DNA of 32,000 nucleotides from a bacterium. Its GTDB lineage: Bacteria > UBP7 > UBA6624 > JBBIMK01. The translations under genes and the position numbers were made by a program. A model generated the notes under the pieces. The model was given only the letters and a program-made list of their open reading frames with translations. It did not search any database and was not told the DNA's origin. Below are positions 4,035 to 31,766 of the stretch, piece after piece; the first letter of the stretch is position 1; the number at the start of each line of letters is the position of its first letter. The stretch covers positions 37,497 through 69,496 of the forward strand of contig JBBIMK010000008.1 in assembly GCA_037444445.1 (NCBI GenBank), given 5' to 3'.

Positions 4035-4062
4035 TTGACAAGGACGGAGCAGGTGGTATAAT
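4035..4062 (+). promoter_or_regulatory. Near-consensus sigma70 promoter with extended -10 (TTGACA-16-TGgTATAAT) and an A/T-rich UP-like tract
   Basis: TTGACA at 4035-4040 and TATAAT at 4057-4062, preceded by TGG (the TGn extended -10). The upstream sequence is GGTTTTTATTTATGCGTATA. It points into a 540-nt tract with no convincing CDS ahead of cusC. Confidence 0.6.
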
Positions 4063-4455
4063 AAGATAGGATGAGCGCACAAAGAAAGGTTGCACTATTT
4101 TTCATCCTTAGCGTTGGGATGTCGTGGATAGGGGTAATGAATTGTTCCTCTACCAGGCTCGAATCTCACCATTCGGGAATGCCCATACCTGCCTCTTCAG
4201 TGCCCTGCCCGAAGTGCAGCCCAACCCAATTGCCTGTTCTTCACATTCTTACCTGCGTTCATCCCAATGCTTCCGTTTTCTTCCCCACTTTTGAGTCAAC
4301 GAGAGCTTTCCAGCCTGCACTGCTCTCTACGCTGAGTGATTTCGTCCATTCCCCGGCAGTATGGCATTCACCGAGTCCAGCAGGTTTTCATCTAAAACCG
4401 CCGAATCAAGTTCCACTTTATCTGTTAAACCTCTCTATTTTATCCTGATTCACTA

Positions 4456-4605: not shown

Positions 4606-5934
4606 ATGGAAAATGCGGGCAATGGATACAGGTTTGCCCGATATAAAAAAGACTGGATACCCATCCTTCTTCTTCTCTTCTGGAGTGGAATCGGATGGGC
4701 GGAGAATCCTGCCATTACACCCATAGAAGCGTTTGTCCGGGAGGCGCCGGAGAAGAACCCGGAAATTCAGGCACTCACTTATCAGTGGGAAGCGATGAAG
4801 GCACGGATTTCTCCCGCGAAAACCCTGCCTGACCCTACCATTGGCATCCGTCTGATGAATATGGGAAACCGCTTGAGCCTCGGGAAGGATATGAACTCTA
4901 TGGTGGGAATCTCTTTCTCACAGATGGTGCCGTATGCGGGCAAACTCCCCCTGATGGGCAAGATTATGGAAGAAGAAGCCAACCAAATGTTTTATATGCT
5001 CCAGGAGAAAAGGTGGATGCTCACCGCGGAAGTTAAAAAAACCTACTACTCTATCTACCACACCGACCGGATGCTGGAAATTCTTCAGGAGAATAAAACC
5101 ATCCTGGAGAATATGGAGAAGTCAATGGAAGCGATGTATCAAGTTGGGGAAGCGCTCCAGCAGGATGTCCTGAAGGCCCAGGTGTCGATTTCTAAGCTTC
5201 TGGAGCAGATGCTGGACCTCCGGAGGCAGAGAAAGGAGTTAGAGGCACGGATGAACCGTCTTCTGGGAAGAAGCGTCACGGCGCCCATCGGAAATCTCCA
5301 GGTGTCTGAGGAGATTTCCCTGCCTTACACGCTGGAGGACTTCAGAGAACTGGCGCTGAAATATTCGCCCACCCTGAGAGTGGAGGAAAAGGGAATCTCC
5401 AGGGCGGAGTATCAAGTGAAACTTGCGGAAAGGGAGTTCAAGCCGGACGCCATGTTCACATACTCTCGTTTCGCTCGTGGAAACTTTGGTCCCGCCTGGG
5501 AAGCCATGATGGAAATCACCGTGCCGTTATACAAGGAGAAAAAGCAGGCTTTTCAACTGATAGAAGCCCGGCAAAAGAAAGAGCAGGCAGAGCAGGCGCT
5601 TCAAGGGAAGAAAAACGAAATTCTCCAGGGGCTGGATGAAATGTTCGCCGCTCTTCAAACCAATGAGGAAATCTATCATCTCCTCGTGGATGGAATCATC
5701 CCACAGGCGGAACTCACTTTTCGGGCATCTATGTCCGCTTATCAAGTGGGAAAGGTGGATTTCCTCACCACCCTGGATAGTCTGATGACTCTTTACGATA
5801 TGAAGATGCGCCTTCACATGACCCTGGAGATGTTTCATAAAGACCTGTCGGATGTGGAGGCAATGATTGGAAAATCCTTAGAGATTCATTCTGGAGGTGA
5901 AACTCATGGAATCAAAACGACTCAAGAAAACTAA
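4606..5934 (+). CDS. cusC: Outer-membrane efflux protein, TolC/OMF family (CusC-like)
   Basis: 442-aa ORF with a hydrophobic N-terminal signal-like segment (WIPILLLLFWSGIGWA). Its long heptad-rich helical repeats are typical of outer-membrane factors. It overlaps the next gene (cusB-like) and is followed by cusA. It has no lipobox Cys. Confidence 0.8.
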   Translation: MENAGNGYRFARYKKDWIPILLLLFWSGIGWAENPAITPIEAFVREAPEKNPEIQALTYQWEAMKARISPAKTLPDPTIGIRLMNMGNRLSLGKDMNSMVGISFSQMVPYAGKLPLMGKIMEEEANQMFYMLQEKRWMLTAEVKKTYYSIYHTDRMLEILQENKTILENMEKSMEAMYQVGEALQQDVLKAQVSISKLLEQMLDLRRQRKELEARMNRLLGRSVTAPIGNLQVSEEISLPYTLEDFRELALKYSPTLRVEEKGISRAEYQVKLAEREFKPDAMFTYSRFARGNFGPAWEAMMEITVPLYKEKKQAFQLIEARQKKEQAEQALQGKKNEILQGLDEMFAALQTNEEIYHLLVDGIIPQAELTFRASMSAYQVGKVDFLTTLDSLMTLYDMKMRLHMTLEMFHKDLSDVEAMIGKSLEIHSGGETHGIKTTQEN

Positions 5935-7330
5935 CTGGTTTATCGGGGCGGGGTTGATACTCACCCTTGTGGGGGGATACACTGCCCATCAGCAAGGCTG
6001 GCTGACCCTGCCTTTCTTTTCCCCAGCTATTACCGCACAACCTATGGAAGGGATGAGCGGAATGGAGATGGGGAAATCAAAAGAGGAGCATGCGGGAATG
6101 GCCGGGATGGAAGGTATGGAGGAAATGGAGGAAGAGGTAGCGCCCAAACGCATTATGATTGACCCGGAAATGCAGCAGATTATCGGCGTCAGAATCCAGA
6201 AGGCCGGATATATGCCCCTCGTGAAAGAAATTCGGACGGTGGGACGAGTGGAATATGACGAAACCCGACTGAAAGCGGTTACAGTTCGGGTGATGGGCTA
6301 CATTACCAAACTTCTTGTGGATTACACAGGGAAAGAGGTAGAAGAAGGCGAACCACTTTTTACCTTTTATTCTCCTGAGCTTGTTTCTGCGCAGCAGGAA
6401 TATCTTCTGGCGTTAAAAGGGGCGAACACTCTTTCCGGTTCCTCCTATTCGGAAATCAGCCAGGGGAGCAAAACCCTGCTGGAATCTGCAAGAAAGCGTC
6501 TTCTCCTCTGGAACTTCACTGAGGAACAAATTCAATCTCTGGAAAATCGTGGAGAGCCAGAGATTGAGTCCTATGTCTATTCCCCGGTTTCTGGGACCGT
6601 GGTAGAAAAGATGGCTCTACAAGGCAAGCAGGTGATGCCCGGGGAAGATTTATACAAAATTGCAGACCTCTCTCAAGTCTGGGTTATTGCCGACCTGTAT
6701 GAGGAGGATGCTCCCCTATTGCGAGTTGGCCAGCATGCTTCCATTCAACTCACCTATTACCCTGGCAAAGCCTTCCACGGCTCTGTGGATTACATCTATC
6801 CCTATTTAGACGAGAAAACGAGAACGATCCGGGTCCGCTTCGCCTTTCGAAACCAGCGAGAAAATGCCCGTGGCGTGAGGGAGGAAACCCGGCACCTGGA
6901 ACACGAAGGAATGGAAGGGATGGAAATGCCTGGAATGCCCGGCATGAATCACACACAGCACCAGGCTCCAAATTCAACCTCTGAAAATTCTTCCGGATGG
7001 CTTCTGAAACCCGGCATGTTCACCAATGTGACAGTGAATGTGAATCTCGGGCAGTATCTTGCGATTCCGGAGGACTCTGTCATAGACACGGGCTTACGTC
7101 AGGTCGTTTTCGTGGACCTGGGGAATGGACATTTCGAGCCCCGGAATGTGGTTCTCGGGCATCGGGTGAACGGCTACTACGCCGTTCTCTCAGGCTTGAA
7201 GCCAGGAGAGCCTATTGTGACCAGCGCCAACTTCCTGCTGGATGCAGAGAGCAAAATCCGCACTGCGATGCCTGCGATGCCGGGAATGGATATGAAAGGG
7301 ATGAAGATGCCCGGACATGCAGGACATTAG
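5906..7330 (+). CDS. cusB: Efflux RND periplasmic adaptor (membrane fusion protein), CusB-like with three Met-rich tracts
   Basis: The adaptor core is recognisable (PLFTFYSPELVSAQQEYL, SPVSGTVVEKM, LYKIADLSQVWVIADLYE, LKPGMFTNVTV, IPEDSVIDTGLRQVVFV). It also has an N-terminal membrane anchor and MxxM-type tracts. I prefer the ATG at 5906 because GGAGG lies 8 nt upstream. The longest ORF starts at the GTG at 5897. Confidence 0.85.
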   Translation: MESKRLKKTNWFIGAGLILTLVGGYTAHQQGWLTLPFFSPAITAQPMEGMSGMEMGKSKEEHAGMAGMEGMEEMEEEVAPKRIMIDPEMQQIIGVRIQKAGYMPLVKEIRTVGRVEYDETRLKAVTVRVMGYITKLLVDYTGKEVEEGEPLFTFYSPELVSAQQEYLLALKGANTLSGSSYSEISQGSKTLLESARKRLLLWNFTEEQIQSLENRGEPEIESYVYSPVSGTVVEKMALQGKQVMPGEDLYKIADLSQVWVIADLYEEDAPLLRVGQHASIQLTYYPGKAFHGSVDYIYPYLDEKTRTIRVRFAFRNQRENARGVREETRHLEHEGMEGMEMPGMPGMNHTQHQAPNSTSENSSGWLLKPGMFTNVTVNVNLGQYLAIPEDSVIDTGLRQVVFVDLGNGHFEPRNVVLGHRVNGYYAVLSGLKPGEPIVTSANFLLDAESKIRTAMPAMPGMDMKGMKMPGHAGH

Positions 7331-7345: not shown

Positions 7346-10300
7346 ATGATTGAACGACTAATAGACTGGTCTGCACGGAATAAATTCCTCGTTCTTCTCG
7401 CCACCTTCTTTGCCATTCTCGGAGGTATCTGGGCGATTAAGAACACTCCGCTGGATGCCATCCCCGACCTCTCCGATGTTCAGGTCATCATCTACACCGA
7501 ATGGATGGGAAGAAATCCCAGAATCATAGAGGACCAGATTACCTATCCCATTTCCACCACTATGCTCTCTGCGCCGAAAGTGAAGGCGGTTCGGGGCATT
7601 TCTGCCTTCGGCTTCTCCTTCATCTATGTCATCTTTCAGGATGGAACGGACATCTACTGGGCGAGGACTCGTGTTCTGGAATATCTGGAAAAAATCAAAG
7701 GGCGTCTCCCGCCCGGCATCACGCCAATCCTCTCCCCGGATGCCACGGGAGTGGGCTGGGTTTATATTTATGCCCTCGCAGATAAAACCGGTCAGAACGA
7801 CCTGGCACAACTTCGGACCATCCAGGACTGGTATCTGAAGTACTATCTGGAAAGCCTGCCTGATGTGGCAGAGGTGGGCACCTTTGGAGGTTTTGTTCGG
7901 GAATATCAGGTGGAAGTTGACCCGAATAAACTTCTTGCCTTCGGCATCCCGTTGAAGATGGTGATGGATGGCATCCGAATGAGCAATCTGGAGGTGGGAG
8001 GTGGAGCCATTGAACTCGCCCAGACGGAATATATGGTGCGAGGGATAGGATATGTGCAAAAAGTGGAGGACCTGAAAAATATCCCTCTGGGCACCAATAT
8101 GATGGGCACGCCGATTTATCTCAAGGATGTGGCGAGAGTGACCCTGGGACCCGATATGAGGAGAGGAGCGGCGGACCTGAATGGAGAGGGCGATGTGGTG
8201 GGAGGCATCGTTGTGATGCGGTATGGAAAAAACGCCCTGCAGGTCATTAACCGGGTGAAGGTGGCGATAGAAGAGTTTCAGAAAACCCGACTCCCCCCCG
8301 GTGTTGAAATCATCCCCGTCTACGACCGTTCCAAACTCATTCTACAATCCATTGCTACCCTTCGCCGAACCCTGATTGAAGAGTCCATCATCGTGATTCT
8401 CGTGTGTCTCATCTTTCTCTTCAGCCTGAGAAGTTCCGGCGTGGTCATCGTCACTCTACCCATTGCCGTGATTCTTTCCTTCATCCCGATGATGTATCTA
8501 CGGCTGACCTCCAACATTATGTCGCTGGGCGGGATTGCCATCGCCATCGGAGCCATGGTTGATGCGGCTATCGTGATGATTGAAAATGTCCACAAGCGGC
8601 TGGAGCATTTTGCACTGGAACATCCTGACTGGGCTCTGACATCAGAGGGTAGAGCCCAGCGAAGTCAAATCCTGATTCACGCCATGCAGGAAGTGGGAAA
8701 ACCCCTCTTCTATTCCCTTCTGGTTATCACGGTCTCCTTCCTCCCGGTATTCACCTTAGAATATCAGGAGGGGAGGCTTTTCAAGCCATTAGCCTTCACG
8801 AAAACCTTCTCCATGTTTTTTGCCTCCTTTCTTTCCATCACCCTGGTGCCTGCCATCATGGGACTATTTATTGAGAAGAAGGTCATCCCGGAGAAGAGAA
8901 ATCCCATCAGCCGATTTCTTATCAGTCTGTATAATCCTGTTGCCCGTTTTGCACTGCGCTGGCGGTTCATCACCATCACCCTCGGTCTTATGGCAACTTT
9001 TCTCGCTTACCCTGCCTATAAAAAACTGGGGAGTGAATTTATGCCACCTCTCTATGAGGGTACCCTTCTATATATGCCAATGACCACACCGGGGATTTCT
9101 ATCTACGAATCCCGGCGGGTTCTGCAAATACAGGATAAACTCCTGAAGCAATTCCCTGAGGTTGACCAGGTGCTGGGGAAAGTGGGGAGAGCCACCACAC
9201 CCACGGACCCTGCTCCCCTGCCCATGGTAGAAACCGTAGTCTCTCTCAAACCTGAACACGAATGGAGGAAAGGGCTGACCTGGGAAAAACTCTTTGACGA
9301 GATGGATAAAGAAATTCAAATCCCCGGATTCGTGAATGTGATGACCATGCCCATCAAAAATCGGGTGGATATGATCACCACGGGGATACGAACACCCGTA
9401 GGAGTGAAGGTCTTCGGGCCGAAACTGGAGGAGGTTCAGGAGATAGCGGAAGAAATTGAACGCATCATTCCACAGGTGGAAGGCACGAGAAGCGCCATTG
9501 CCGAGCGCTCTTTAGGCGGGTTTTACTTGAACATCACCCCCAGGCGGGAAGCTCTGGCTCGCTACGAACTTTCCATTATGGATGTCCAGGATGTGATAGA
9601 AATGGCAATCGGTGGAACTGTCATCTCCACCACGATTGAGGGCCGAGAACGCTACCCCATCAATATCCGGTATCCGAGGGAACTTCGGCTCTCTCCAGCC
9701 CTCCTGAAAAGGGTATTGATTCAAACGCCTATGGGCTACTCCATCCCGATTTCGCAGGTGGCGGATATAGAACTCACTCAGGGTCCGGATATGATACGAA
9801 GTGAGCGGGGACAACTCACTGGCACAGTTTATGTTGATGTGGCTGGCCGGGACATTGGCTCCTATGTGGCGGAAGCCAAAAAACTGGTGGAAGAAAAAAT
9901 CAAACTCCCTCAGGGTTATTCCATCCTCTGGAGCGGGCAATACGAGTATATGCAGAGAGTTACAGAAAAGTTAAAATATATGATTCCCCTTACCCTTTTC
10001 ATCATCTTCCTGCTGATGTATCTCAACTTCGGCTCCGTGGGGAAGACTCTCGTAGTGATGCTTTCCATTCCCTTCGCTCTCACCGGGAGTATGCTGGGAA
10101 TATATTTGATGAATTATAATCTCAGCGTGGCGGTGTGGGTGGGAATCATTGCTCTCGCCGGCGTTGCCGCTGAAACCGGCGTGGTGATGCTGGTGTATAT
10201 TGATGAAGCCTATGAACGATACAAAAAACAGGGGATGATGCGCACCCGCCAGGACCTCTCTGATGCCATCATTGAGGGAGCAGTGCAAAGGGTTCGCCCC

Positions 10301-10513
10301 AAGATGATGACCGTAATGGCTGTCATGATGGGGCTGATTCCCATCCTGTGGAGCCACGGAGCAGGTGCGGATGTGATGCGGAGAATCGCCATGCCGATGA
10401 TTGGCGGTATGGTCACTTCTACCATTCTCACTCTCTTCATCATTCCTTCCATCTTTCACATCTGGAAATCTTTTGAACTCCCTAAACAGAAGCAAACTGG
10501 AGGTGAATCCTGA
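7346..10513 (+). CDS. cusA: Heavy-metal (Cu/Ag) efflux RND inner-membrane pump, CusA family
   Basis: 1055 aa with 12-TM RND architecture and strong resemblance throughout to CusA/SilA (MIERLIDWSARNKFLV..., GVGWVYIYAL, AIGAMVDAAIVMIENVHK). The motifs LLYMP, PLPMVET and VDMITTG correspond, from my memory of E. coli CusA, to the Met573/Met623/Met672 metal-binding triad. Confidence 0.95.
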   Translation: MIERLIDWSARNKFLVLLATFFAILGGIWAIKNTPLDAIPDLSDVQVIIYTEWMGRNPRIIEDQITYPISTTMLSAPKVKAVRGISAFGFSFIYVIFQDGTDIYWARTRVLEYLEKIKGRLPPGITPILSPDATGVGWVYIYALADKTGQNDLAQLRTIQDWYLKYYLESLPDVAEVGTFGGFVREYQVEVDPNKLLAFGIPLKMVMDGIRMSNLEVGGGAIELAQTEYMVRGIGYVQKVEDLKNIPLGTNMMGTPIYLKDVARVTLGPDMRRGAADLNGEGDVVGGIVVMRYGKNALQVINRVKVAIEEFQKTRLPPGVEIIPVYDRSKLILQSIATLRRTLIEESIIVILVCLIFLFSLRSSGVVIVTLPIAVILSFIPMMYLRLTSNIMSLGGIAIAIGAMVDAAIVMIENVHKRLEHFALEHPDWALTSEGRAQRSQILIHAMQEVGKPLFYSLLVITVSFLPVFTLEYQEGRLFKPLAFTKTFSMFFASFLSITLVPAIMGLFIEKKVIPEKRNPISRFLISLYNPVARFALRWRFITITLGLMATFLAYPAYKKLGSEFMPPLYEGTLLYMPMTTPGISIYESRRVLQIQDKLLKQFPEVDQVLGKVGRATTPTDPAPLPMVETVVSLKPEHEWRKGLTWEKLFDEMDKEIQIPGFVNVMTMPIKNRVDMITTGIRTPVGVKVFGPKLEEVQEIAEEIERIIPQVEGTRSAIAERSLGGFYLNITPRREALARYELSIMDVQDVIEMAIGGTVISTTIEGRERYPINIRYPRELRLSPALLKRVLIQTPMGYSIPISQVADIELTQGPDMIRSERGQLTGTVYVDVAGRDIGSYVAEAKKLVEEKIKLPQGYSILWSGQYEYMQRVTEKLKYMIPLTLFIIFLLMYLNFGSVGKTLVVMLSIPFALTGSMLGIYLMNYNLSVAVWVGIIALAGVAAETGVVMLVYIDEAYERYKKQGMMRTRQDLSDAIIEGAVQRVRPKMMTVMAVMMGLIPILWSHGAGADVMRRIAMPMIGGMVTSTILTLFIIPSIFHIWKSFELPKQKQTGGES

Positions 10514-10746
10514 TGAAATTTTTTGACCCTGTTTGCAACGTTTTCCTGGACACGCTGGACGAAGAGTTGCAGGCCCCTCACGGCAACCACATTCACTACT
10601 TCTGCTCTCCCACCTGCCGGAAAATCTATGAGGAAGCACTGGAATACGAGGAGACCATCCGAAATCCACTGGAGTTCCATGCCGGTGGCAGGGAAAAGGA
10701 GCCATACCTTTTCATCAAGAGGGTAGATACAGGGTATGAGGCGTAG
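10513..10746 (+). CDS. Small YHS/TRASH-like protein (degenerate motif DPVCN...HYFCSPTC)
   Basis: 77-aa ORF whose ATG overlaps the cusA stop (TGATG). Its pattern, DPVC-x23-YFCSxxC-xxxY, matches the YHS domain consensus (DPVCGM...YYFCSxxC...F), but the Gly-Met after the first Cys is missing. It has no signal peptide. Confidence 0.6.
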   Translation: MKFFDPVCNVFLDTLDEELQAPHGNHIHYFCSPTCRKIYEEALEYEETIRNPLEFHAGGREKEPYLFIKRVDTGYEA

Positions 10747-10779
10747 AAGAAAAAACTGAACACCTGGAGGTGAGAAAAT

Positions 10780-11268
10780 ATGAAACTTGTATGGGCGGTC
10801 ATTCGGGAAAATAGACTACGAGAAGTTCAAAAAGCCCTGCAAAAAGAAGGCTTTACCGGGGCAACCGTAGTCCATGTTTCCGGTATGGGGGAAGAAGATT
10901 CTCATCCTCCCCTCACCCTTTTTCCCCACATCAAAATGGAAATCATCACTTCGGATAACCTGGCAGAAAAAGCAGTGGAAACGATTATGAATGCTGCCTG
11001 GACGGGCTTGCCAGGAGACGGAGGGATTGCCATCTTACCGGTGGAGAAGGTCTGGAAAATCCGACATAAGGAACGACTCATCACTCTTTTGGAAAAAGTG
11101 ATTGACCCGGTTTGCAAAATGAAGATAGAGAAAATGAAAGCAGCGGGTAAGACAGAGTTTGCAGGAACCAGTTACTACTTCTGTTCTGAAATATGCCTGT
11201 TAAAATTCCAGGAGTCTCCGGAAAAATTTCTCCGGGCAAGCAAGAGCTCTAAAGTAAAGGAGGAATAA
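10780..11268 (+). CDS. PII (GlnB/GlnK)-like domain fused to a C-terminal YHS domain
   Basis: Residues 1-105 align by eye with PII (MKLVWAVIRENRLREVQKALQKEGFTGATVVHVSGMG...IKMEIITSD...AEKAVETIMNAAWTGLPGDGGIAILPVEKVWKIR). The T-loop is shortened and has no Tyr51 equivalent. The C-terminus, IDPVCKMKIEK...TSYYFCSEICLLKFQESPEKF, is a YHS domain. A strong SD (GGAGGTGA) is present. Confidence 0.8.
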   Translation: MKLVWAVIRENRLREVQKALQKEGFTGATVVHVSGMGEEDSHPPLTLFPHIKMEIITSDNLAEKAVETIMNAAWTGLPGDGGIAILPVEKVWKIRHKERLITLLEKVIDPVCKMKIEKMKAAGKTEFAGTSYYFCSEICLLKFQESPEKFLRASKSSKVKEE

Positions 11269-11270
11269 AT

Positions 11271-11564
11271 ATGAAATTGAATCCGGCAGGATTCGCAAGC
11301 GCTCTGGGGATAACCTCAGCCATCCTTTACTTTGTGTGCGGCATCCTTGCCGCGGTCACTCCTCAGTTTCTCCTCTACATTTTCAAGACCTGGTTCCACG
11401 GGATGAATCTGGATGCACTCGTCCCTGCTGACGGACACATTTTCAATCTGACTCTGTTCATCATCGGGCTTATCACCTTCACGGCTACCGGCTGGGGCAG
11501 TGGGTGGTTGGTGGCAATTATTTACAATTTGTGGCAAAAGAAAAGCCCGGAGAAAGGAGAGTGA
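11271..11564 (+). CDS. Small integral membrane protein (2-3 TM), function unknown
   Basis: 97-aa ORF starting 2 nt after the previous stop, with an SD (GGAGGA). Hydrophobic segments: ITSAILYFVCGILAAV and LTLFIIGLITFTATGWGSGWLVAIIY. Confidence 0.6.
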   Translation: MKLNPAGFASALGITSAILYFVCGILAAVTPQFLLYIFKTWFHGMNLDALVPADGHIFNLTLFIIGLITFTATGWGSGWLVAIIYNLWQKKSPEKGE

Positions 11565-11569
11565 TAGAG

Positions 11570-11779
11570 ATGGTAATGGAAATTGACCCCGTGTGCGGTA
11601 TGAGGGTGGATACACGGATTCCTGCTGCTAAATCTGAGCATGAAGGGATTACTTATTTCTTCTGCTCCGTTGGGTGCAAGGGCATCTTTGACCAGGACCC
11701 CGACAAATACAGCCGACTATACTGGAAGAAAAGAGGGATGGATAAACCTGAATCTCCGGAGGTGGAGACTGATGGTTGA
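11570..11779 (+). CDS. YHS domain protein (canonical DPVCGM...YFFCSxGC)
   Basis: MVMEIDPVCGMRVDTRIPAAKSEHEGITYFFCSVGCKGIFDQDPDKY. I chose the ATG at 11570 because the SD AAAGGAGAG lies about 9 nt upstream. The longer ORF from 11504 overlaps the preceding gene. Confidence 0.8.
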   Translation: MVMEIDPVCGMRVDTRIPAAKSEHEGITYFFCSVGCKGIFDQDPDKYSRLYWKKRGMDKPESPEVETDG

Positions 11780-11987
11780 GAAGGACCCGGTATGCGGGAT
11801 GCCGGTAGATACAAAACGGGCAGGCAGTAGCCTTTCCTTTCAGTATAACGGAAGGACCTACTACTTTTGCTCTCACTATTGCCGGGAGCATTTTGAAGCG
11901 GACCCGGAACGATATTACCGGGGAAGGCAGACAGAGATGATGGGCCCACATAAAGAATTCAGGGAAAAAGGAGGTGAAAATGAATGA
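11772..11987 (+). CDS. YHS domain protein (second tandem copy)
   Basis: MVEKDPVCGMPVDTKRAGSSLSFQYNGRTYYFCSHYCREHFEADPERYY. The ATG at 11772 is preceded by GGAGGTGGAG and overlaps the previous gene by 8 nt (ATGGTTGA). Confidence 0.8.
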   Translation: MVEKDPVCGMPVDTKRAGSSLSFQYNGRTYYFCSHYCREHFEADPERYYRGRQTEMMGPHKEFREKGGENE

Positions 11988-12481
11988 AGGGCCGAAATTC
12001 TCTTCACTGGATTCTGGCACTGGCGTTTACAGGGCTTTTTCTCGGTGTGGCAGACGATTCTTCCTCTACGCCTCATGATGAGGGGATGATGGGCGGGATG
12101 ATGCCTATGATGCAGATGTGCCACCAGATGATGTCCCGACAGATGTCGGGAATGGGCGGCGGTATGCATCATCCTATGATGGACATGATGGGGCATGAAC
12201 CGCAACCCATGACCCCCGAGGAGCGGGAAATCGCTAAAATGATGGCGGATGCAGAGGTGAAAGAAGCCCAGCTGCACCGAATGCTTCTGGAAGAGAATGT
12301 GAATCCGGATGCCCTGAAGGGAAAGATACGAGAGATTCATGACCTTCAGGTGGAAATCCAGTTCAGGGAAATCATGACCGCTCGTGCAAAAGCATCGGCT
12401 CAGAAACCTTCCGAAAAGGGAGAAAGCAAGAGTGAGCACGAGATGCATCACATGGGCGGCATGGGCAGGATGGGGAAATAA
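11984..12481 (+). CDS. Met/His-rich periplasmic protein with a Spy/CpxP/ZraP-like helical domain
   Basis: The signal peptide is WILALAFTGLFLGVA. A tract of about 45 aa follows, containing about 17 Met plus His (EGMMGGMMPMMQMCHQMMSRQMSGMGGGMHHPMMDMMGH). Next comes a helical region like periplasmic stress/metal-sensor chaperones (MTPEEREIAKMMADAEVKEAQLHRMLLEENVNPDALKGKIREIHDLQVEIQ). The tail is HEMHHMGGMGRMGK. The start overlaps the previous stop (ATGA). Confidence 0.75.
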   Translation: MKGRNSLHWILALAFTGLFLGVADDSSSTPHDEGMMGGMMPMMQMCHQMMSRQMSGMGGGMHHPMMDMMGHEPQPMTPEEREIAKMMADAEVKEAQLHRMLLEENVNPDALKGKIREIHDLQVEIQFREIMTARAKASAQKPSEKGESKSEHEMHHMGGMGRMGK

Positions 12482-12525
12482 CGGAGGGTGAAGAGGAGGA
12501 ATTGCCCCCTTCCATCAGGAATCGC

Positions 12526-12556
12526 GGGGGGTCCTCTACCTGCTCCGGGACCCCCC
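12526..12556 (+). terminator. GC-rich hairpin in the only sizeable intergenic gap of the module (possible attenuator or weak terminator)
   Basis: GGGGGGTCC (12526-12534) pairs with GGACCCCCC (12548-12556), giving a 9-bp stem and a 13-nt loop. No U-tract follows (CCGATTCCACTTT), so it is not a classical intrinsic terminator. Confidence 0.3.
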
Positions 12557-12583
12557 CCGATTCCACTTTAAGGAGGAATGCAT

Positions 12584-13270
12584 ATGCCTACATGCGCTGT
12601 GTGCTTGATGAAAGTCTCACGCGAGGTTAAATTTCGCACAGAAATTAAGAAGCGAACCTACTATTTTTGCAGTTCCCGCTGTCTGATGCAATTTCAGAAA
12701 ACTCCGGAAAAATATTCTCCTGTGCATATACGAACACCGGCATTTGTGGGAATTCCTTCCCGGGTTCATCTCAGCCAATCCGCCTTTACAGCATTGATTT
12801 TATCCGTGGCGGAGATATTCAAAAAAGAAGCCATGGGCTACCTTCTGGGAAATTGCAAGGGCGAAGTGGTGGAGATAGACCATGCGATACCCTTTCAAAC
12901 GGGTAAAAGAGGTTATACTTACAGTGCAGTTTCTCTCCGGCGGCTGGAGTGGGTTAGAGACCTGACAGAGCGCATCCATCCAGGATTGCAGTGGATTGGA
13001 GATTATCATTCTCACCCTCAGCATGGAAATGTCCTGCGTCTTCACCTTCCCAGCATTCTGGATGTGGAAGATATGGAACCCGGGTATGTTTATTTAGTCA
13101 TTTCAGTGAACGAAGTACAAGTTTGCTTACCCTGGCGCACGAGCAGGAAGAGGGGAACTCTCGCTGGAACTCTGGGAAAATTGCGGATGGAGATTGCGGG
13201 CTACTGTCTTGATAAAGAGCAAAATTTGCGCCGTTTAGAGGTGGATGCCCCCTGGTTGAAAAGAAAATAA
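12584..13270 (+). CDS. TRASH/YHS-type zinc-ribbon domain fused to a JAB/MPN+ (JAMM) metalloprotease domain
   Basis: The N-terminus MPTCAVCLMKV...RTYYFCSSRCLMQFQKTPEKY follows C-x2-C-x21-C-x3-C. The C-terminal domain has the JAMM signature elements: KKEAMGYLLG (Glu), IGDYHSHPQ (HxH) and PSILD (S-x2-D). Spacing between HxH and S is 12 residues, against the usual 7. The ATG at 12584 lies 7 nt after AAGGAGG. The ORF also opens at 12578. Confidence 0.75.
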   Translation: MPTCAVCLMKVSREVKFRTEIKKRTYYFCSSRCLMQFQKTPEKYSPVHIRTPAFVGIPSRVHLSQSAFTALILSVAEIFKKEAMGYLLGNCKGEVVEIDHAIPFQTGKRGYTYSAVSLRRLEWVRDLTERIHPGLQWIGDYHSHPQHGNVLRLHLPSILDVEDMEPGYVYLVISVNEVQVCLPWRTSRKRGTLAGTLGKLRMEIAGYCLDKEQNLRRLEVDAPWLKRK

Positions 13271-13359: not shown

Positions 13360-15384
13360 ATGGCTTCGGGACTGGTGGTCGTTGGGCGCTATCAGTTTCT
13401 GCTGGAAAAAGAAGCCACGCCACTCACCCGGGGAAAGACATCATACATTACCGTTCGCATCTTTGATACTTATGCGAAGGCTCTGCTGAAGGGGAAGCGA
13501 GTGCTTATGGCTATCAAACTTCCTCAAGCAGCGATTCCCCCCGGCCAAATCCCGGTACCCACGCTTATACCACCTTCTTCTCAGCACTCTTCTACAGGAA
13601 TAGCAGTGGACAGTCCTGTTTCCTGGACCCCAGAGGGCAACCCGGATGTATCCGACCTACTGCCCACAGAAGAAACTGCGGAGGGAGGGCATTATCGGAT
13701 AAAATTCACTCCTGAAACTTCCGGGGTTCATCTATTGAAACTGGCACTGTTTGTGGACGATGCATCCTCACCTCTTCTAATAGAATTCCCTCTCCAGGTA
13801 AAAAACCCGGCGTTCACGCTCACACGAATCGTATTTTTTACGCTTCTCCTGCTATTCCTCACCGTTATTTCTCTGAGCGTTTTCTCTCTCCGCAGAAGAT
13901 ATGGCTCCTCCGATTCACAGTCTTTGAATCTACTGGAAATTCCATGGTTAAACCGGTTTATTCGCTGGAGATATTTTCAAACAGTTTTTCAAGTTCCCCT
14001 GCTGTTTTTGTTGATTCTCATCATCTTTGCAGGTTTATATGATGCACCTGATGGGAGCAAAAATTTCGCCACGATTCTCACCTGGACAGTGTGGTGGGCG
14101 GGGATTATCTTTACCTTCGTTCTACTGGGAAGAGTCTGGTGTTTTATGTGTCCTGTGGGAGGGCTGGCGGATTGGACGGGGAAATGGGCTCAGCCCCGTC
14201 GCCTTCTACCCAAACTCCTTCGTTCTTTGTGGATTCCCACCGTTCTATTCCTTTTTCTTACCTGGCTGGATGGAGCGGTGGGCATCGTAAACAATCCGCG
14301 CTTGACCGCCTGGGTCCTGATGTCTATTGCCGGGCTTGCAATTCTCATTTCTCTGCTGTTTGCCCGTAGGACTTTTTGCCGGTATATCTGCCCGATTGGA
14401 GGAATGATTGGGTTATATTCTATGTTTTCCCCGGTAGAGTTGAGGGTGAAATCTCATGAAATCTGTCGTTCACACAACCCGAAAACCTGCTATCTGGGTT
14501 CTCCAGATGGGGAAGGATGCCCGATGTTTGAATATCCAGCGGTGATGAATCGCAACAATTACTGTAACTTTTGCGGGGAGTGCGTCAAAACCTGCTCGCC
14601 GAACAATCTTGTCTTGAGATTTCGCCCGTTCGGGACAGACCTTTTTACTCTGGTAAATCCCCGTCTGGATGAGGCATTTTTTGCCCTTACATTAACAGGA
14701 GTAAGCCTGGTGGCGGTAGGGCATATGATTGCTCCCTGGCATTCCTGGATGCTGGGGCTTTCCAGGCTCATCGGATTGGGAAGGCTGGGTATTACCAGCG
14801 AGAAAACCTTAACTGTCATCGGTTTCACCATCACCCTGTTCAGTATATCTGTGGTGATTTTGCCTGCTCTGGTTTACGGTGCAGTGCTCTGGCTTCAAAA
14901 GTTTTCTGTGGGGCAACCCATTCTGGCCGACCGAGGGAACGACGGCAGGGCAGAAAAAGTGGCTCCACATCAAATTTTCAGCCGTTTTGCTTACGCCTTC
15001 ATTCCTGTGGGATTATCCATGCATCTGGCTCACAATATCCAGCATTTATTAACTGAAGGAGCCGTTATCATCCCCGCCACACAAAAATTCCTGAACAACT
15101 ATACTTTCTTTAATCTCGGCATTTCCAACTGGCAGGCTTATTCTTTCCCTCATTCCCCCTATATCACCTGGCTTCAAATCACACTCGTCCTCATATTTTT
15201 GCCCTTTTCTCTGCGAATACTTGATAGGGTGTGGCATCAGTATTTTTCTCCATCAGCCCGATTTCAGTGGGCAATGGCTCCCTTACTCCTTTTGGTTCTC
15301 GTTCTGGTGTGGCTGAATCTCTTCCTTATCCAGCAAGATATGTCTGCCCGGCACACAACCCTGTTGACAGCCATCGCCCGATGA
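13360..15384 (+). CDS. Membrane polyferredoxin (NapH/MauN/CcoG-like 4Fe-4S protein) with an N-terminal periplasmic beta-rich domain
   Basis: It has multiple TM helices, two CxxCP motifs at helix ends (VWCFMCPVGGLADW and TFCRYICPIGGMIG) and a ferredoxin motif (CNFCGECVKTCSP). A further Cys group is CRSHNPKTCYLGSPDGEGCP. The coordinates are from the first ATG. The in-frame upstream sequence (from 13252) encodes a signal-peptide-like KKIKKALFLYAFFTVVQPALLWAHG, so the real start is probably upstream and non-canonical. Confidence 0.75.
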   Translation: MASGLVVVGRYQFLLEKEATPLTRGKTSYITVRIFDTYAKALLKGKRVLMAIKLPQAAIPPGQIPVPTLIPPSSQHSSTGIAVDSPVSWTPEGNPDVSDLLPTEETAEGGHYRIKFTPETSGVHLLKLALFVDDASSPLLIEFPLQVKNPAFTLTRIVFFTLLLLFLTVISLSVFSLRRRYGSSDSQSLNLLEIPWLNRFIRWRYFQTVFQVPLLFLLILIIFAGLYDAPDGSKNFATILTWTVWWAGIIFTFVLLGRVWCFMCPVGGLADWTGKWAQPRRLLPKLLRSLWIPTVLFLFLTWLDGAVGIVNNPRLTAWVLMSIAGLAILISLLFARRTFCRYICPIGGMIGLYSMFSPVELRVKSHEICRSHNPKTCYLGSPDGEGCPMFEYPAVMNRNNYCNFCGECVKTCSPNNLVLRFRPFGTDLFTLVNPRLDEAFFALTLTGVSLVAVGHMIAPWHSWMLGLSRLIGLGRLGITSEKTLTVIGFTITLFSISVVILPALVYGAVLWLQKFSVGQPILADRGNDGRAEKVAPHQIFSRFAYAFIPVGLSMHLAHNIQHLLTEGAVIIPATQKFLNNYTFFNLGISNWQAYSFPHSPYITWLQITLVLIFLPFSLRILDRVWHQYFSPSARFQWAMAPLLLLVLVLVWLNLFLIQQDMSARHTTLLTAIAR

Positions 15385-15439
15385 ATAAACTGGAAATGAA
15401 TGCTTCAAAGGAAATACAGCAATGGAGAGGTGAGGTGAG

Positions 15440-15748
15440 ATGTGTAGATTCATCTGGACGGTAATTTTAGTGGTAACTCTGAGTTCAGCAGGGTTAGCCC
15501 ATACAGGAGAGAAACACGAGAAGTTGCAGGAGTCACCCCCATCTGCGGAAGTTACAACGCCAGAGAAAGAAATGAACCAGGGAGTGGAACACGAGATGAT
15601 GGAAGGAGCATCAGAAACCCGGCCTGCTCCTCAGGTGCCTTTGAATCCGGCGAGAGATGTGGTTTTGCTTGTCATATTCACCGCTGGTGGAATCTGGCTG
15701 GCGATTCGCAACTACCAGCATTTCTCTAAGGGGGCTGCTTCCCGATGA
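15440..15748 (+). CDS. Small exported/anchored protein (signal peptide, acidic His/Met-containing region, C-terminal TM)
   Basis: 102 aa with an SD (GAGGTGAGGTGAG). The N-terminal signal is FIWTVILVVTLSSAGLA followed by HTGEKHEK. The C-terminal TM is VVLLVIFTAGGIWLAI. The stop overlaps the cytochrome b start (ATGA). Confidence 0.55.
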   Translation: MCRFIWTVILVVTLSSAGLAHTGEKHEKLQESPPSAEVTTPEKEMNQGVEHEMMEGASETRPAPQVPLNPARDVVLLVIFTAGGIWLAIRNYQHFSKGAASR

Positions 15749-16740
15749 CCACCTGGCGAGAAAGATTCGGTCTTCACGCGCTGGCGTACCCGGTTCCATC
15801 ACACAGTCACCGATTAGACTATGCCCTCGGAGCTATCGCTCTCTCGGGCTTTCTGATTCTCATTCTCACGGGCATCTGGCTGGGGCTTTTATATCAGGTC
15901 GGTGCCACCAGTGCCTATGAAAGTGTGGAGGCTCTTCAGGGTCTGGACCGGTGGGTGCGAAACCTACATTACTGGTCCGCCCACTTCACCTATCTTACGG
16001 TGCTTCTTCATGTGGTTCGGGTAGGGATTACAGGGGCCTATCGCACTCCGAGAGAAGGAATCTGGTGGTTGGGAGTTTTTCTCCTCGCTACCGTCTCTGC
16101 TATATTCCTCACCGGAACCATCATCAAGTGGGACCAGGAAGGATATGAAGCCTACGCCCATCTGGAAGAAGGCTTCGCATACGCCGGACCTCTTGCCAAT
16201 TTCTTGAAAAGCAGATTTACTGGTTCTGTCGCATTTTCCTCTCTCTTCTTCACCCATACTTCCCTTCTCCCGATTTTAGTTCTTCTTCTGATTGCAGGAC
16301 ATTTACTTCTGATAAAAATCCACGGGATTTCTGAATTACCTGGCGAGACCTCTTCCACTGCACGCATTCCTTTTACGCAGGTTATGAAAACCATTTCCCT
16401 TTATACAGGTGGATTTTTTATTCTGCTGGTGATACTTGCCACTTTCCTCCCAGCCCCATTGGGGCCTAACTTCGTAGAAGGGTTTGAGGTTACTAAACCT
16501 CCGTGGCCCTTCCTCTGGATTTATGCCCTGGAGAACTGGCTTGGAATGATGGGTATGGTATGGGGACCTGCCCTGCTCTTCCTCGGATTATTGGCTATGC
16601 CACTGCTGGACCGGGGGAAAAATCGGCGAGCATGGATTACCCTATTCCTCCTTGTCCTTCTACTTCTGATTGCCCTTGGTTTATATGCTGCCCTCTCTGT
16701 TCCCGTTCCTCATCTGGAAATGCAAACAGGTGAATCCTGA
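15745..16740 (+). CDS. Cytochrome b (b6-type His spacing) with a fused subunit-IV-like C-terminal domain
   Basis: Helix B is NLHYWSAHFTYLTVLLH (H-x13-H). Helix D is FTHTSLLPILVLLLIAGH (H-x14-H, the b6/Firmicutes-type spacing). The C-terminal KPPWPFLWIYALENWLG occupies the position of the PEWY Qo motif. No Rieske or cytochrome c gene is adjacent. Confidence 0.8.
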   Translation: MTTWRERFGLHALAYPVPSHSHRLDYALGAIALSGFLILILTGIWLGLLYQVGATSAYESVEALQGLDRWVRNLHYWSAHFTYLTVLLHVVRVGITGAYRTPREGIWWLGVFLLATVSAIFLTGTIIKWDQEGYEAYAHLEEGFAYAGPLANFLKSRFTGSVAFSSLFFTHTSLLPILVLLLIAGHLLLIKIHGISELPGETSSTARIPFTQVMKTISLYTGGFFILLVILATFLPAPLGPNFVEGFEVTKPPWPFLWIYALENWLGMMGMVWGPALLFLGLLAMPLLDRGKNRRAWITLFLLVLLLLIALGLYAALSVPVPHLEMQTGES

Positions 16741-16799
16741 TGAAAGAAAACGAACCTAATGTGGAAGAAAACGAAAATCTTCAGAGGAGGTAGAGTGAA

Positions 16800-17258
16800 A
16801 TGTCACAGAAGAAAGGCTCAACCAGGGAAGCAGAGAAAGCCAGGTCTTTATCGCGAGTGATAGGGGTGACTGGTTTTCTCGCCCTGGGGCTTGGACTCTT
16901 TTTCACTGTCCGCCTATTTCTTACGGGGAAACCGGTGGAGATAAAAACCAATGGAGAAGCTCCACCTTACAGGCGAGTGGAGACACGCCCTGTTCTTCCC
17001 TCTTCTCTTTTCACTGGTGCTGTGGCAGAAGCCTATCAGGCTGCCCACGATATGCCCGATTTCATTGACCAGTTTTACTGCTACTGCCAGTGCAAGGAAT
17101 ATCACGGGCACAAAACTCTTCTTACCTGTTTTACTGATAAGCACGCCGCTAATTGCGACATTTGTTTATATCAAGCCCTCACTGCTGTCCAGATGAGCAA
17201 AGAAGGAAAGTCTGCGGATGCCATTCGCCATTTCTTCTCCTCCCGTTTCGCCCAGTAA
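16800..17258 (+). CDS. Membrane-anchored CYCxC-motif (PCYCGC-like) Cys/His-rich protein, putative metal-binding
   Basis: The N-terminal TM anchor is VIGVTGFLALGLGLFFTV. The extracytoplasmic domain contains FYCYCQCKEYHGHKTLLTCFTDKHAANCDICLYQAL. As I recall, this resembles the PCYCGC/CYCXC family of unknown function. The SD AGAGGAGG lies 8 nt upstream of the start. Confidence 0.7.
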   Translation: MSQKKGSTREAEKARSLSRVIGVTGFLALGLGLFFTVRLFLTGKPVEIKTNGEAPPYRRVETRPVLPSSLFTGAVAEAYQAAHDMPDFIDQFYCYCQCKEYHGHKTLLTCFTDKHAANCDICLYQALTAVQMSKEGKSADAIRHFFSSRFAQ

Positions 17259-22861: not shown

Positions 22862-24436
22862 TTAAATGAAGAGGCCCAGTCTACCGAAATAGAAAGAGAG
22901 AGAAGAGTTATATATGTTCGTTAAAAGGCCGGGGAGAACGCCAAAAAGAACGATAAAAAAACTGGGGATGGCAAGGCTGAGCACCTCACGACGGTCCATA
23001 TCTGTCAGATGTTTCCAGGTTTCATTCAGCGGTCCCATGAACATCCGTTGAAGCATCCAGAGAGTATAGCCGGCGGTGATGACGATAGCCGGTGCGGCGC
23101 AGATTGCCAGCAGTCGGAAGGTATAGATTCCGTTCCAGAGGTAGAAGGTGTTTCTGAAGGCCCCCAGATAAGCCAGGGCTTCGCCCCAGAAGCCAGAGAG
23201 CCCGGGCAGAGCCAGGTTTGCCATCCCCACGAGGCCGAAGAAGGCAAAATAAGTGCTCATAACGGCGCCCAGGCCTCCAAACTCGCTCATAATTCGGGTA
23301 TGTGCTCGGTCATAAATCACGCCAGTCAGCAAGAAGAGTGCTCCGGAAACGAATCCATGACTGACCATCACAAACATGCCGGCAGAGGCACCTTCCGGTG
23401 TCTGGGTTGCCAACCCGAATAGCACATATCCCATATGGCTTACACTTGCCATGGCAATCAGAGTTTTCAAATCTGCCTGCGCCATGGCTACCAGAGCGGC
23501 ATACACGATGGAAACCACACCGATGAGGGCAATGAGAATCGCCAGATGCTTCACCGCATCTGGAAAGGTCGGGAAGACAAAACGATAAAACCCATATCCC
23601 CCCGTCTTCAGGAGCAATCCCGCCAGGATAACGCTGATAGGCGTAGGGGCTTCCACATGGGCATCCGGTAGCCAGGTATGAAAAGGCACAATGGGAACTT
23701 TTACACCAAAGCCCAGCAGAAAAAGGAAAAACGCAGTAACCTGGAGAGAAAGGGGTAGTTGATGAGTGGTTCGCGCCAGGACGAACGAATTGAAGGTGAG
23801 TTCTTCCGGCTTCAATCCGCTATGCCAGTAAATGAGCAGAATGCCGAAGAGAAGGGCAATACTTCCCGCGAGTGTAAACAGGAAAAATTTAATAGCGGCA
23901 TAGATTCGCCTCGGCCCTCCCCAGATGCCAATGAGAAAATACATAGGCACCAGCATCAATTCCCACATAATAAAGAAGAGAAAATAATCCATAGATATAA
24001 ACACTCCGATAATGCTCATCTCCAGTAAAAGGAATAAGATGGAATATTCCTTCACCCGGAAATGGATGCTCCAGGAGCCGAGAGCGGCGGCGACGAAAAG
24101 AATGGCAGTGAGCATCACCATAGCCAGGCTGATGCCATCCACCTGCACATGATAATAAGCGCCAATCTGAGGAAACCAGGGAATCATCAGCCCGAATTCT
24201 CTTTGAAATCCTCCCTTCATATAGTCATACAGCGTCATCATATAGCCCACTTCTCCGGCGACTACGAGAGTGACCAGAAGGGTGAAGGTTCGGATGGCTT
24301 TCTCTTTTGCGGGAGGAAAGAAAGTCAGGAGGATAAGACCGATGAGAGGAGTAAAAAGAATCAGGGTAGGTAAATTGGTTATCATCGCACGAAGAATCTC
24401 CACAGCGGGCAGTAAGGTTACCTGTGCTTCTTCCAT
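22862..24436 (-). CDS. nuoM: NADH-quinone oxidoreductase (complex I-like) subunit M
   Basis: 524 aa and polytopic. The signature WELMLVPMYFLIGIWGGPRRIYAAIKFFLFTLAGS and HTWLPDAHVEAPT are typical of NuoM/ND4. Confidence 0.9.
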   Translation of the reverse strand: MEEAQVTLLPAVEILRAMITNLPTLILFTPLIGLILLTFFPPAKEKAIRTFTLLVTLVVAGEVGYMMTLYDYMKGGFQREFGLMIPWFPQIGAYYHVQVDGISLAMVMLTAILFVAAALGSWSIHFRVKEYSILFLLLEMSIIGVFISMDYFLFFIMWELMLVPMYFLIGIWGGPRRIYAAIKFFLFTLAGSIALLFGILLIYWHSGLKPEELTFNSFVLARTTHQLPLSLQVTAFFLFLLGFGVKVPIVPFHTWLPDAHVEAPTPISVILAGLLLKTGGYGFYRFVFPTFPDAVKHLAILIALIGVVSIVYAALVAMAQADLKTLIAMASVSHMGYVLFGLATQTPEGASAGMFVMVSHGFVSGALFLLTGVIYDRAHTRIMSEFGGLGAVMSTYFAFFGLVGMANLALPGLSGFWGEALAYLGAFRNTFYLWNGIYTFRLLAICAAPAIVITAGYTLWMLQRMFMGPLNETWKHLTDMDRREVLSLAIPSFFIVLFGVLPGLLTNIYNSSLSFYFGRLGLFI

Positions 24437-24443
24437 TCTCTAT

Positions 24444-28014: not shown

Positions 28015-28030
28015 TGATTTCACTCCTTAA

Positions 28031-31616: not shown

Positions 31617-31655
31617 CGCAACCCTGTCTGCCTCCTTTTCCTCACCACTTAAAGA

Positions 31656-31684
31656 ATGTTACCAGCCCAAACCTGGTCTGTCAA
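31656..31684 (-). promoter_or_regulatory. Candidate nuo operon promoter (TTGACA-17-TAACAT)
   Basis: The reverse complement of 31656-31684 reads TTGACA gaccaggtttgggctgg TAACAT. It lies about 40 nt upstream of the nuoA ATG, which is preceded by AAAGGAGG. Confidence 0.45.
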
Positions 31685-31766
31685 TCACACTGGACTTTCC
31701 AAAATTTCTCGGTAAAATTTATAGTGTAGCAGACAAGGATGACAAAAATGTGGGAGGGATAAAAAT

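Follow-up and report, generated by a model that had tools for sequence, protein, structure and literature searches.

A PII-like domain fused to a YHS domain behind a CusA-type pump: a candidate cytoplasmic accessory of bacterial metal efflux

The 32,000-nucleotide (nt) stretch of bacterial DNA analysed here, referred to throughout as the window (GenBank assembly GCA_037444445.1, contig JBBIMK010000008.1, positions 37,497 to 69,496 of the forward strand; GTDB lineage Bacteria; UBP7; UBA6624; JBBIMK01), encodes a protein of 162 amino acids (aa), PII::YHS, in which an N-terminal PII-like domain is joined to a C-terminal YHS domain. PII proteins belong to the most widely distributed signal transducers, and the inputs known for them are small metabolites (ATP/ADP, 2-oxoglutarate, cAMP as well as c-di-AMP). 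The gene lies in a plus-strand series of tightly spaced or overlapping genes downstream of a CusA-type efflux pump (Table 1), an arrangement that places a PII-like module next to a candidate metal-binding module in a metal-efflux operon. The PII::YHS architecture is rare, and the partnership of PII and YHS genes that underlies it is common.

Table 1. Features of the PII::YHS gene and of the surrounding efflux operon, in window coordinates.
Feature	Position	Strand	Evidence and remarks
Candidate operon promoter, TTGACA-16 nt-TATAAT	4035..4062	+	12/12 consensus with TG extension; pattern match only
Outer-membrane factor (CusC-like)	4606..5934	+	PF02321 OEP, E=1.4e-38
Met-rich CusB-like membrane-fusion protein	5897..7330	+	PF16576 HlyD_D23, 252.6 bits; CusB and CzcB NCBIfam matches both below cutoff
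CusA-type Cu(I)/Ag(I) RND permease	7346..10513	+	TIGR00914 (CusA/CzcA model), 1154 bits (cutoff 701)
77-aa YHS/TRASH-like protein	10513..10746	+	custom YHS hidden Markov model (HMM), 28.4 bits; zf-FCS, 21.1 bits, below cutoff; Asp and three Cys kept
Shine-Dalgarno sequence GGAGGTG	10766..10772	+	7 nt before the PII::YHS ATG; read from the sequence
PII::YHS open reading frame (ORF)	10780..11268	+	ATG start, 162 aa plus stop, from the ORF list; Pfam P-II and YHS
PII-like domain, residues 1-98	10780..11073	+	PF00543; PDB GlnB-2; AlphaFold2 (AF2); Foldseek
Short T-loop, residues 36-50 (MGEEDSHPPLTLFPH)	10885..10929	+	E38/E39 for R38/Q39, H50 for K58, no Tyr51; GlnB alignments
B-loop G79-D80-G81-G82 (GDGK in GlnB)	11014..11034	+	K90 equivalent is Gly (G82)
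Linker of about 8 residues (RLITLLEK)	11074..11097	+	between the P-II and YHS Pfam envelopes
YHS domain, residues 107-152	11098..11235	+	PF04945; custom YHS HMM; D109, C112, C135, C139
DUF5676 protein with two transmembrane segments	11271..11564	+	PF18926, 65.9 bits; starts 2 nt past the PII::YHS stop
Stand-alone YHS protein, 69 aa from ATG 11570	11570..11779	+	PF04945, 51.4 bits; 69-aa gene in L010
Stand-alone YHS protein, 71 aa from ATG 11772	11772..11987	+	PF04945, 50.6 bits; 71-aa gene in L010
Met/His-rich protein with hydrophobic N-terminal segment	11984..12481	+	no family match; signal peptide as judged by eye
YHS::JAB/MPN fusion	12578..13270	+	PF04945, 32.5 bits, and PF14464, 33.5 bits; conserved in L010

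PII::YHS is a genuine single gene whose ORF is intact in two strains. The frame is present as first described, behind a strong Shine-Dalgarno sequence, and the second member of its 90%-identity cluster (P0384; 162 aa, 96% identical) comes from an independent public run, SRR11582170. The 13.8-kb contig that carries this second copy (L010) preserves the gene order of the window from an ArsA-like gene through a NapH-like gene. The two 489-nt ORFs differ at 19 nucleotides in 18 codons (11 synonymous, 7 non-synonymous) with no insertion or deletion, and the sole change close to the PII/YHS junction is V107A. The protein has no N-terminal signal peptide, and its N-terminus forms beta-strand 1 of the PII fold, so that it should be cytoplasmic, a location that we consider probable. 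Like other PII proteins it is presumably trimeric.

The N-terminal domain is a true member of the P-II family. Pfam P-II (PF00543) matches residues 1-98 at 70.5 bits (cutoff 25; E=1.7e-19), and the alignment spans profile positions 1-102 of 102. Among solved structures, 41 PII chains match the N-terminal part of the protein, and the closest is Archaeoglobus fulgidus GlnB-2/GlnK2 (E=1.5e-17), which aligns with one 8-residue gap in the T-loop. An AF2 model, built on 58 sequences and as a monomer only, has a mean predicted local distance difference test score (in blocks of ten residues) of 93-98 for residues 1-30 and 51-90 and of 89 for residues 91-100, with 67-72 in the T-loop. Its secondary structure (strands at 2-9, 29-33, 50-57, 82-86 and 90-93; helices at 10-22 and 59-73) follows the expected beta-alpha-beta-beta-alpha-beta order, and the best Foldseek matches listed from the PDB are all GlnK, GlnB or GlnZ (E about 3e-9, target-normalised template modelling scores of 0.62-0.81). 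The PII fold that the preliminary description had assigned to residues 1-105 is thus supported by profile, model and structure comparison alike. That description had also named DUF3240 and CutA1 as profiles to be compared alongside P-II; neither appears in the Pfam scan of the protein even at E<=1, and membership of either family is ruled out by the lack of a profile match.

In structures of GlnB, GlnK and the Synechococcus elongatus PII protein, R38, K90, R101 and R103 contact the phosphates of ATP, and Q39 and K58 contact Mg and 2-oxoglutarate. The equivalent residues of the window protein are E38, E39, H50 (for K58), G82 (for K90), K93 (for R101) and R95 (for R103), of which only the last two are conservative or retained. 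The T-loop, counted from G37 to the K58 position, has 12 residues compared with 20 in E. coli GlnB. It had been recognised from the outset as shortened and devoid of the modifiable tyrosine, and this part of the assessment stands, since the Tyr51 column is a gap and residues 36-50 contain no tyrosine at all; the shortfall is 8 residues rather than the roughly 7 first estimated. Residues E38, E39, H50, K52 and R95 are invariant among the six closest sequences.

These features are not a peculiarity of the window protein, as they had first appeared, and the short T-loop is a trait common to a subfamily of at least 121 relatives. An exhaustive phmmer search with the window protein against 1.84 billion representatives returned stand-alone proteins of 100-109 aa (P0020, with 49% identity, P0053, P0122 and P0145), whose alignment to the query leaves no gap in the T-loop. 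A profile built from such stand-alone short-T-loop PII proteins matched 1324 proteins; of the best 120, all but the window protein have a single domain and a length of 100-122 aa (mostly 108). When 121 relatives were aligned with E. coli GlnB, the R38 column was Glu in 121 of 121, the Q39 column Tyr in 111 and Glu in 10, the K58 column His in 108 and Tyr in 11, and the K90 column Ile in 107, Leu in 5, Val in 5, Gly in 2 and Arg in 2. The Y51 column was a gap in all 121, with T-loops of 12-13 residues compared with 20, and G35, G37, G84 and G87-D88-G89 (GlnB numbering) were invariant; the R103 column was Arg in 119 of 121. In the T-loop segment of the 108-aa branch (13 sequences), G37, G39, E40, Y41, Y45, D48 and W49 are invariant. 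By alignment, therefore, the glycine-rich architecture of the cleft is kept in this family and four of the six charged contacts are exchanged. Because the contacts to ATP, Mg and 2-oxoglutarate (R38, Q39, K58 and K90) are replaced, canonical sensing of ATP and 2-oxoglutarate by the family is unlikely, and the established picture of PII proteins as ATP/ADP/2-oxoglutarate sensors, which had been brought to bear on the window protein, is unlikely to hold for a cleft with E38, E39, His at K58 and Gly at K90. Another ligand could possibly occupy the cleft, for example a metal held by Glu and His.

The stand-alone proteins of 100-109 aa (P0020, P0053, P0122, P0145, P0151 and others) resemble the window protein closely, with 42-49% identity, a T-loop of 12-13 residues, and shared G-x-G-E-[EY] and G-D-G-[IVLG] motifs together with His at the K58 position. 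Their genes also stand right after an RND gene in L001, L002 and L004/5. They differ in having no fused YHS domain. The hosts of the short-T-loop family include Gammaproteobacteria (Thiotrichaceae, Sedimenticola, Ectothiorhodospiraceae), Zetaproteobacteria, Deltaproteobacteria, Binatia, Acidobacteriota, Planctomycetales and WOR-3, and the database label given to such proteins is merely 'P-II family nitrogen regulator'.

The second half of the fusion is a canonical YHS domain, as originally described. Pfam YHS (PF04945) matches residues 107-152 with an E-value of 2.9e-15 and 56.4 bits (cutoff 30.3), and a custom-built YHS HMM scores the same domain at 69.6 bits. Residues D109, C112, C135 and C139, spaced as D-x2-C-x22-C-x3-C, align with the DPVC...YYFC...C motif of other YHS domains. 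A sequence search for the YHS domain among solved structures gave no significant match, the best being the phenol hydroxylase component PhN at E=0.19. The one functional precedent found is the class IIIc adenylyl cyclase of Mycobacterium phlei, which copper activates through a YHS domain attached at the C-terminus by an 8-residue linker, with one Asp and three Cys proposed as the metal ligands (PMC4626032). The window protein shares with this cyclase the C-terminal position of the YHS domain, an effector at the N-terminus from which YHS is separated by about 8 linker residues, and the Asp and three Cys; it differs in that the effector there is a cyclase rather than a PII fold, and the metal tested there was Cu2+ in vitro.

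The pump encoded upstream of PII::YHS is CusA-like. The RND permease aligns with E. coli CusA at 1156 bits compared with 512 bits for ZneA, and the equivalents of the CusA methionine triad (M573, M623 and M672) are methionines in the alignment, which together mark it as a pump of the Cu(I)/Ag(I) type. The start of the 77-aa YHS/TRASH-like ORF overlaps the RND stop by 1 nt, and this ORF is called as a gene in L010. No helix-turn-helix, two-component or CsoR-type regulator was found among the window ORFs scanned, with ORFs of less than 90 aa covered only in part, and within that scope the earlier remark that no conventional regulator is present holds. There is likewise no amtB, glnA or nif gene in the 32-kb window.

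To place this arrangement in a wider context, the six closest PII domains were searched against 185,579 species-representative genomes, which yielded 80 loci (67 bacterial and 13 archaeal) that were scored by ORF and HMM search. Among these matches, identity to the window protein is 44% at best. A CusA/CzcA-like RND gene stands directly upstream (<=700 nt) in 28 of the 67 bacterial loci and further upstream, within 3 kb, in 5 more; 11 loci are truncated upstream, and such a gene is found anywhere within 6 kb in 41. This agrees with the statement in the preliminary description that PII-like proteins occur in heavy-metal RND operons. A CopA-like P-type ATPase lies within 6 kb in 33 of the 67 loci, and because this is about half of them, the short-T-loop family appears to be tied to metal efflux generally and not to RND pumps only. 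A same-strand YHS ORF is present within 3 kb in 29/67 and a YHS ORF within 600 nt in 9/67, and in none (0/67) is the PII domain fused to YHS. The 13 archaeal loci, from Methanoregula, have no YHS nearby (0/13).

Individual loci illustrate the same partnership. Three stand-alone relatives (P0020, P0145 and P0154) are encoded directly downstream of an operon for an outer-membrane factor, a membrane-fusion protein and an RND permease, and the gene order OEP-MFP-RND-PII is seen in L001, L002, L004/5 and L014, with RND-PII on the shorter contig L013. The locus of the nearest unfused relative, L001, is an unfused version of the window arrangement, in which the RND gene is followed by PII (105 aa), a spacer of 57 nt, a separate YHS gene (58 aa) and a Met/His-rich protein. 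A distinct PII subfamily with a full-length T-loop shows a similar pairing in Rhodocaloribacter (L011/L012), where a 112-aa PII gene and a 61-aa YHS gene are separated by 47 nt and the neighbours are a cupredoxin, P-type ATPases and a DUF5676 protein (L011, 1581-1874), with no RND.

A second fusion of the same kind was found in an unrelated lineage. A profile built from the window protein and P0116 retrieved six 90%-identity clusters of a 169-aa PII::YHS protein (P0116 and P0266-P0270), whose NCBI names place them in Candidatus Aminicenantales. On the four contigs that reach upstream (L006-L009), the 169-aa gene follows right after a CusA-like RND gene and is itself followed by a gene for a YHS+HMBD protein; L007 also carries CsoR, CopA, a cupredoxin and a CcmH-like gene. 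The PII domain of this clade shares 83% identity with P0271, an unfused protein of 113 aa, and 66-72% with the nine unfused proteins (112-113 aa) that come after it in the BLAST list. Its identity to the PII domain of the window is 36.5%, which is below its identity to a canonical GlnB-like protein. Since the Aminicenantales domain is closer to unfused P0271, the PII::YHS architecture was assembled at least twice, from different metal-locus PII lineages. The two clades have the same domain order and the same position after a CusA-like gene wherever the contig extends upstream, and the Asp and three-Cys motif of the YHS domain is present in P0116, the single member inspected. They differ in that the T-loop of the Aminicenantales proteins is of full length, the linker is about 20 residues long and the cleft is another one (P38, S39 and Met at K90). 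Fusions beyond these two clades were absent from the 150 best phmmer matches, the 67 genome loci and the best 80 metagenome loci. The phmmer matches were mostly multi-YHS repeat proteins, with a PII domain in 7 of the best 150; a single-sequence word-index search with the window protein returned only itself; and the best 80 loci of a metagenome scan with the fusion alignment held canonical PII or YHS genes, with no fusion and no PII-YHS adjacency.

The association of PII genes with heavy-metal RND operons has been described for the 'PII new group', PII-NG (Sant'Anna et al. 2009, as summarised in PMC7726332). Geobacter sulfurreducens GSU2134, a PII-NG member in a czc operon, has been suggested to sense metal (PMC7726332), and as far as our literature search showed, no ligand, partner or function has been assigned to the group. 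The window protein shares with PII-NG its character as a PF00543 protein that is distinct from GlnB/GlnK and clusters with a Cus-type RND operon, in the order OEP, MFP, CusA-like RND, 77-aa ORF and PII::YHS. It differs in its C-terminal YHS domain, which is not described for PII-NG in the literature searched, and in gene position, as GSU2134 is the first gene of its operon and the window gene comes after the RND gene. These comparisons suggest that the window protein sits in a metal-efflux-associated PII branch that is PII-NG-like by genomic context. What is already known is that PII genes occur in heavy-metal RND operons; what is new is the C-terminal YHS fusion and the recurrent pairing of PII with YHS, and our searches for literature on PII together with a YHS domain, and likewise on DUF3240 with PII, found no relevant paper.

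The GlnK trimer docks on the cytoplasmic face of the co-transcribed trimeric AmtB channel, with the T-loop serving as a plug. Both GlnK-AmtB and SbtB-SbtA are systems in which a PII protein acts on its cognate transporter as a 'valve plug' (bioRxiv 10.1101/2023.08.10.552651), and they resemble the window, from genes alone, in that a small PII-fold gene is apparently co-transcribed with a trimeric membrane transporter. They differ in that they sense adenine nucleotides (and 2-oxoglutarate or cAMP) and insert a long T-loop, whereas the window protein has replaced nucleotide and 2-oxoglutarate contacts, a short T-loop and an RND pump as its neighbour. CutA1 and DUF3240, PII-like folds associated with metal tolerance, offer a looser likeness, as a ferredoxin-like trimeric fold discussed in connection with copper.

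Taken together, these observations support a model, which we favour by a modest degree of belief, in which PII::YHS is a cytoplasmic PII-like protein of metal efflux that takes its Cu(I)/Ag(I) input through the YHS domain and acts as a sensor or accessory. The proposal that the PII fold receives a Cu(I)/Ag(I) input from YHS draws on the covalent fusion, its independent recurrence and the frequent pairing of PII and YHS genes. The YHS domain would bind the metal and serve as the sensory input of the PII module in place of nucleotide or 2-oxoglutarate, and with metal occupancy the PII trimer would change its conformation or the way it binds partners. It could then modulate a membrane efflux component from the cytoplasmic side, for which the trimeric CusA encoded upstream would be the likeliest target; this pump is attractive because PII-type trimers dock on co-transcribed trimeric transporters, as in GlnK-AmtB and SbtB-SbtA. 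Alternatively, PII::YHS might hand metal to the CusA pump. Where PII and YHS are encoded separately, the two products would act as a two-protein complex, of which the fusion would be the 'Rosetta-stone' form.

Several considerations weigh against this sensor or accessory model. Metal binding, trimer formation and partner interaction are all predicted, from sequence and by analogy. GlnK plugs AmtB with its T-loop; since this loop is 8 residues shorter in the window protein, a GlnK-like plugging of the pore is doubtful. The glycine-rich loops and K93/R95, the equivalents of R101/R103, are retained and leave room for an anionic or nucleotide ligand; metal through YHS as the sole input remains the more probable. 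In the AF2 model the YHS half is of low confidence (block means of 46-75 over residues 101-162) and is drawn as helices, so that domain packing is not readable from it. An RND pump does not appear to be an obligatory partner, as 26 of the 67 loci have no RND within 6 kb, 14 of these 26 carrying a CopA-like P-type ATPase, and the PII and YHS genes of L011 are accompanied by a cupredoxin and ATPases, with no RND. The suggestion that the protein regulates the pump or its neighbours is to this extent retained, with the pump as one possible target among several, given how many relatives adjoin P-type ATPases without an RND gene. In addition, Selim et al. in 2021 reportedly questioned the role of CutA in metal tolerance, which counsels caution in deriving function from context.

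One alternative is an artefact in which a frameshift, the loss of a stop codon or a chimeric assembly has merged separate PII and YHS genes. It might be thought of because the nearest unfused relative encodes them separately, 57 nt apart, and the preliminary description had itself raised a sequencing error between two genes; we regard such an artefact as extremely improbable. The independently assembled strain has the same ORF without an indel and more synonymous than non-synonymous changes, the linker of about 8 residues is not a read-through of the 57-nt spacer, and six 90%-identity clusters in an unrelated lineage have the same architecture. It is similarly hard to credit that the protein is an ordinary GlnB/GlnK nitrogen regulator with an extra C-terminal domain. 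The NCBI label of its relatives and the significant Pfam P-II match would fit such an identity, whereas the GlnB/GlnK equivalog models score far below their cutoffs (NF008111, 54.1 bits against 202; NF007946, 47.6 against 181), which indicates that the window protein is not GlnB/GlnK. The replaced contacts, the missing Tyr51, the T-loop shorter by 8 residues, and a cus operon context free of nitrogen genes also speak against it.

A reading with more to recommend it, which we nonetheless hold to be rather unlikely, is that the PII trimer gathers three YHS domains as a buffer or chaperone scaffold that stores or passes on Cu(I)/Ag(I) with no regulatory output. The five YHS-type domains within 2.2 kb resemble an assemblage for trafficking or buffering, the protein has lost the contacts to the classical PII ligands, its T-loop, usually the element of output, is short, and YHS is also fused to non-signalling partners (JAB and HMBD). 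However, the 108-aa branch shows strong conservation of the short T-loop, with seven invariant residues in 13 sequences, which argues for a particular partner or ligand and against a passive scaffold, and since most family members have no fused YHS and 38 of the 67 loci have none nearby, the PII part should have a role of its own. Less likely still, and in our view improbable, is an action of PII::YHS on a neighbour other than CusA, such as the DUF5676 membrane protein, the YHS::JAB protein or a P1B-type ATPase whose gene lies elsewhere. The 2 nt between the PII::YHS stop and the DUF5676 start, the recurrence of DUF5676 and P-type ATPases in the RND-less L011 locus, and the CopA-like ATPase in 33 of 67 loci point in that direction; against it, the DUF5676 protein of the window has no BLAST match in the 67 surveyed loci, an RND gene directly upstream is the commonest single arrangement (28/67), and both fusion clades are placed right behind a CusA-like gene (in the window with the 77-aa ORF between).

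A broader generalisation, which we advance tentatively and consider less probable than not, is that PII-NG-type proteins and YHS proteins form a widespread and hitherto unrecognised metal-sensing module of two parts in the cytoplasm, which the window has in fused form. A YHS domain with one Asp and three Cys would take the place of adenine nucleotides and 2-oxoglutarate as input to the PII trimer, and the metal-loaded trimer would dock on the trimeric CusA/CzcA pump from the cytoplasmic side, or on a P1B-ATPase, and switch efflux post-translationally. If this were true, it would add a new class of input to PII signalling and a new layer of control to heavy-metal RND pumps. The value of the present observations lies less in the single fusion than in the recurrent PII-YHS partnership, which offers a first concrete and testable input for an orphan PII branch. 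Were the sensor or accessory model for the window protein correct, it would explain the control of some Cus/Czc pumps that have no nearby transcriptional regulator and would carry the 'transporter valve' principle of PII proteins over to RND pumps. Should the sensor reading fail, the protein would still be instructive as a PII scaffold put to another use in metal handling.

The remainder of the operon shows further features of metal handling. Five YHS/TRASH-type domains lie in about 2.2 kb (10525-12715, plus strand), an unusually dense set of putative cytoplasmic metal-binding domains behind one pump. The YHS::JAB protein joins a metal-binding module to a deubiquitinase-like metalloprotease fold, which is an odd combination. 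The Met/His-rich protein is probably periplasmic and may be a CusF-like periplasmic metal binder; a Met/His-rich protein also follows the YHS gene in L001 (8508-9092). The CusB-like adaptor has Met-rich stretches at its N-terminus, in a mid-protein insertion (HEGMEGMEMPGMPGMNH) and at its C-terminus.

Upstream, directly after the candidate promoter, a 125-aa ORF within 4035-4448 (plus strand) has a hydrophobic N-terminal segment and several Cys and matches no family. It is intact in L010 (88.8% amino-acid identity), where it is not called as a gene, and unrelated small Cys-containing ORFs with hydrophobic N-termini are also found just before the OEP gene in L001, L002 and L004. The candidate promoter itself is to be read with caution, as 15 promoter-like sites were found across the region compared with 13.7 expected in shuffles, which is no excess. 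A search near it for an operator or inverted repeat gave nothing convincing, and no convincing terminator follows it until well past the region; terminator-like sites within the operon were no commoner than in shuffles.

Immediately behind the cus/YHS genes, a redox-looking membrane set (13360-17258, plus strand) comprises a NapH/MauN-like Fer4_5 protein of 674 aa, an ORF of 102 aa, a cytochrome b of 331 aa and a protein with a PCYCGC motif, and might carry out copper oxidation or reduction at the membrane. Housekeeping genes on the minus strand surround the locus, namely a cluster of five tRNA genes, trigger factor and the nuo (complex I) operon (1593-2127, 344-1570 and 22862-31994), which indicates that the locus is chromosomal rather than part of an obvious mobile element.

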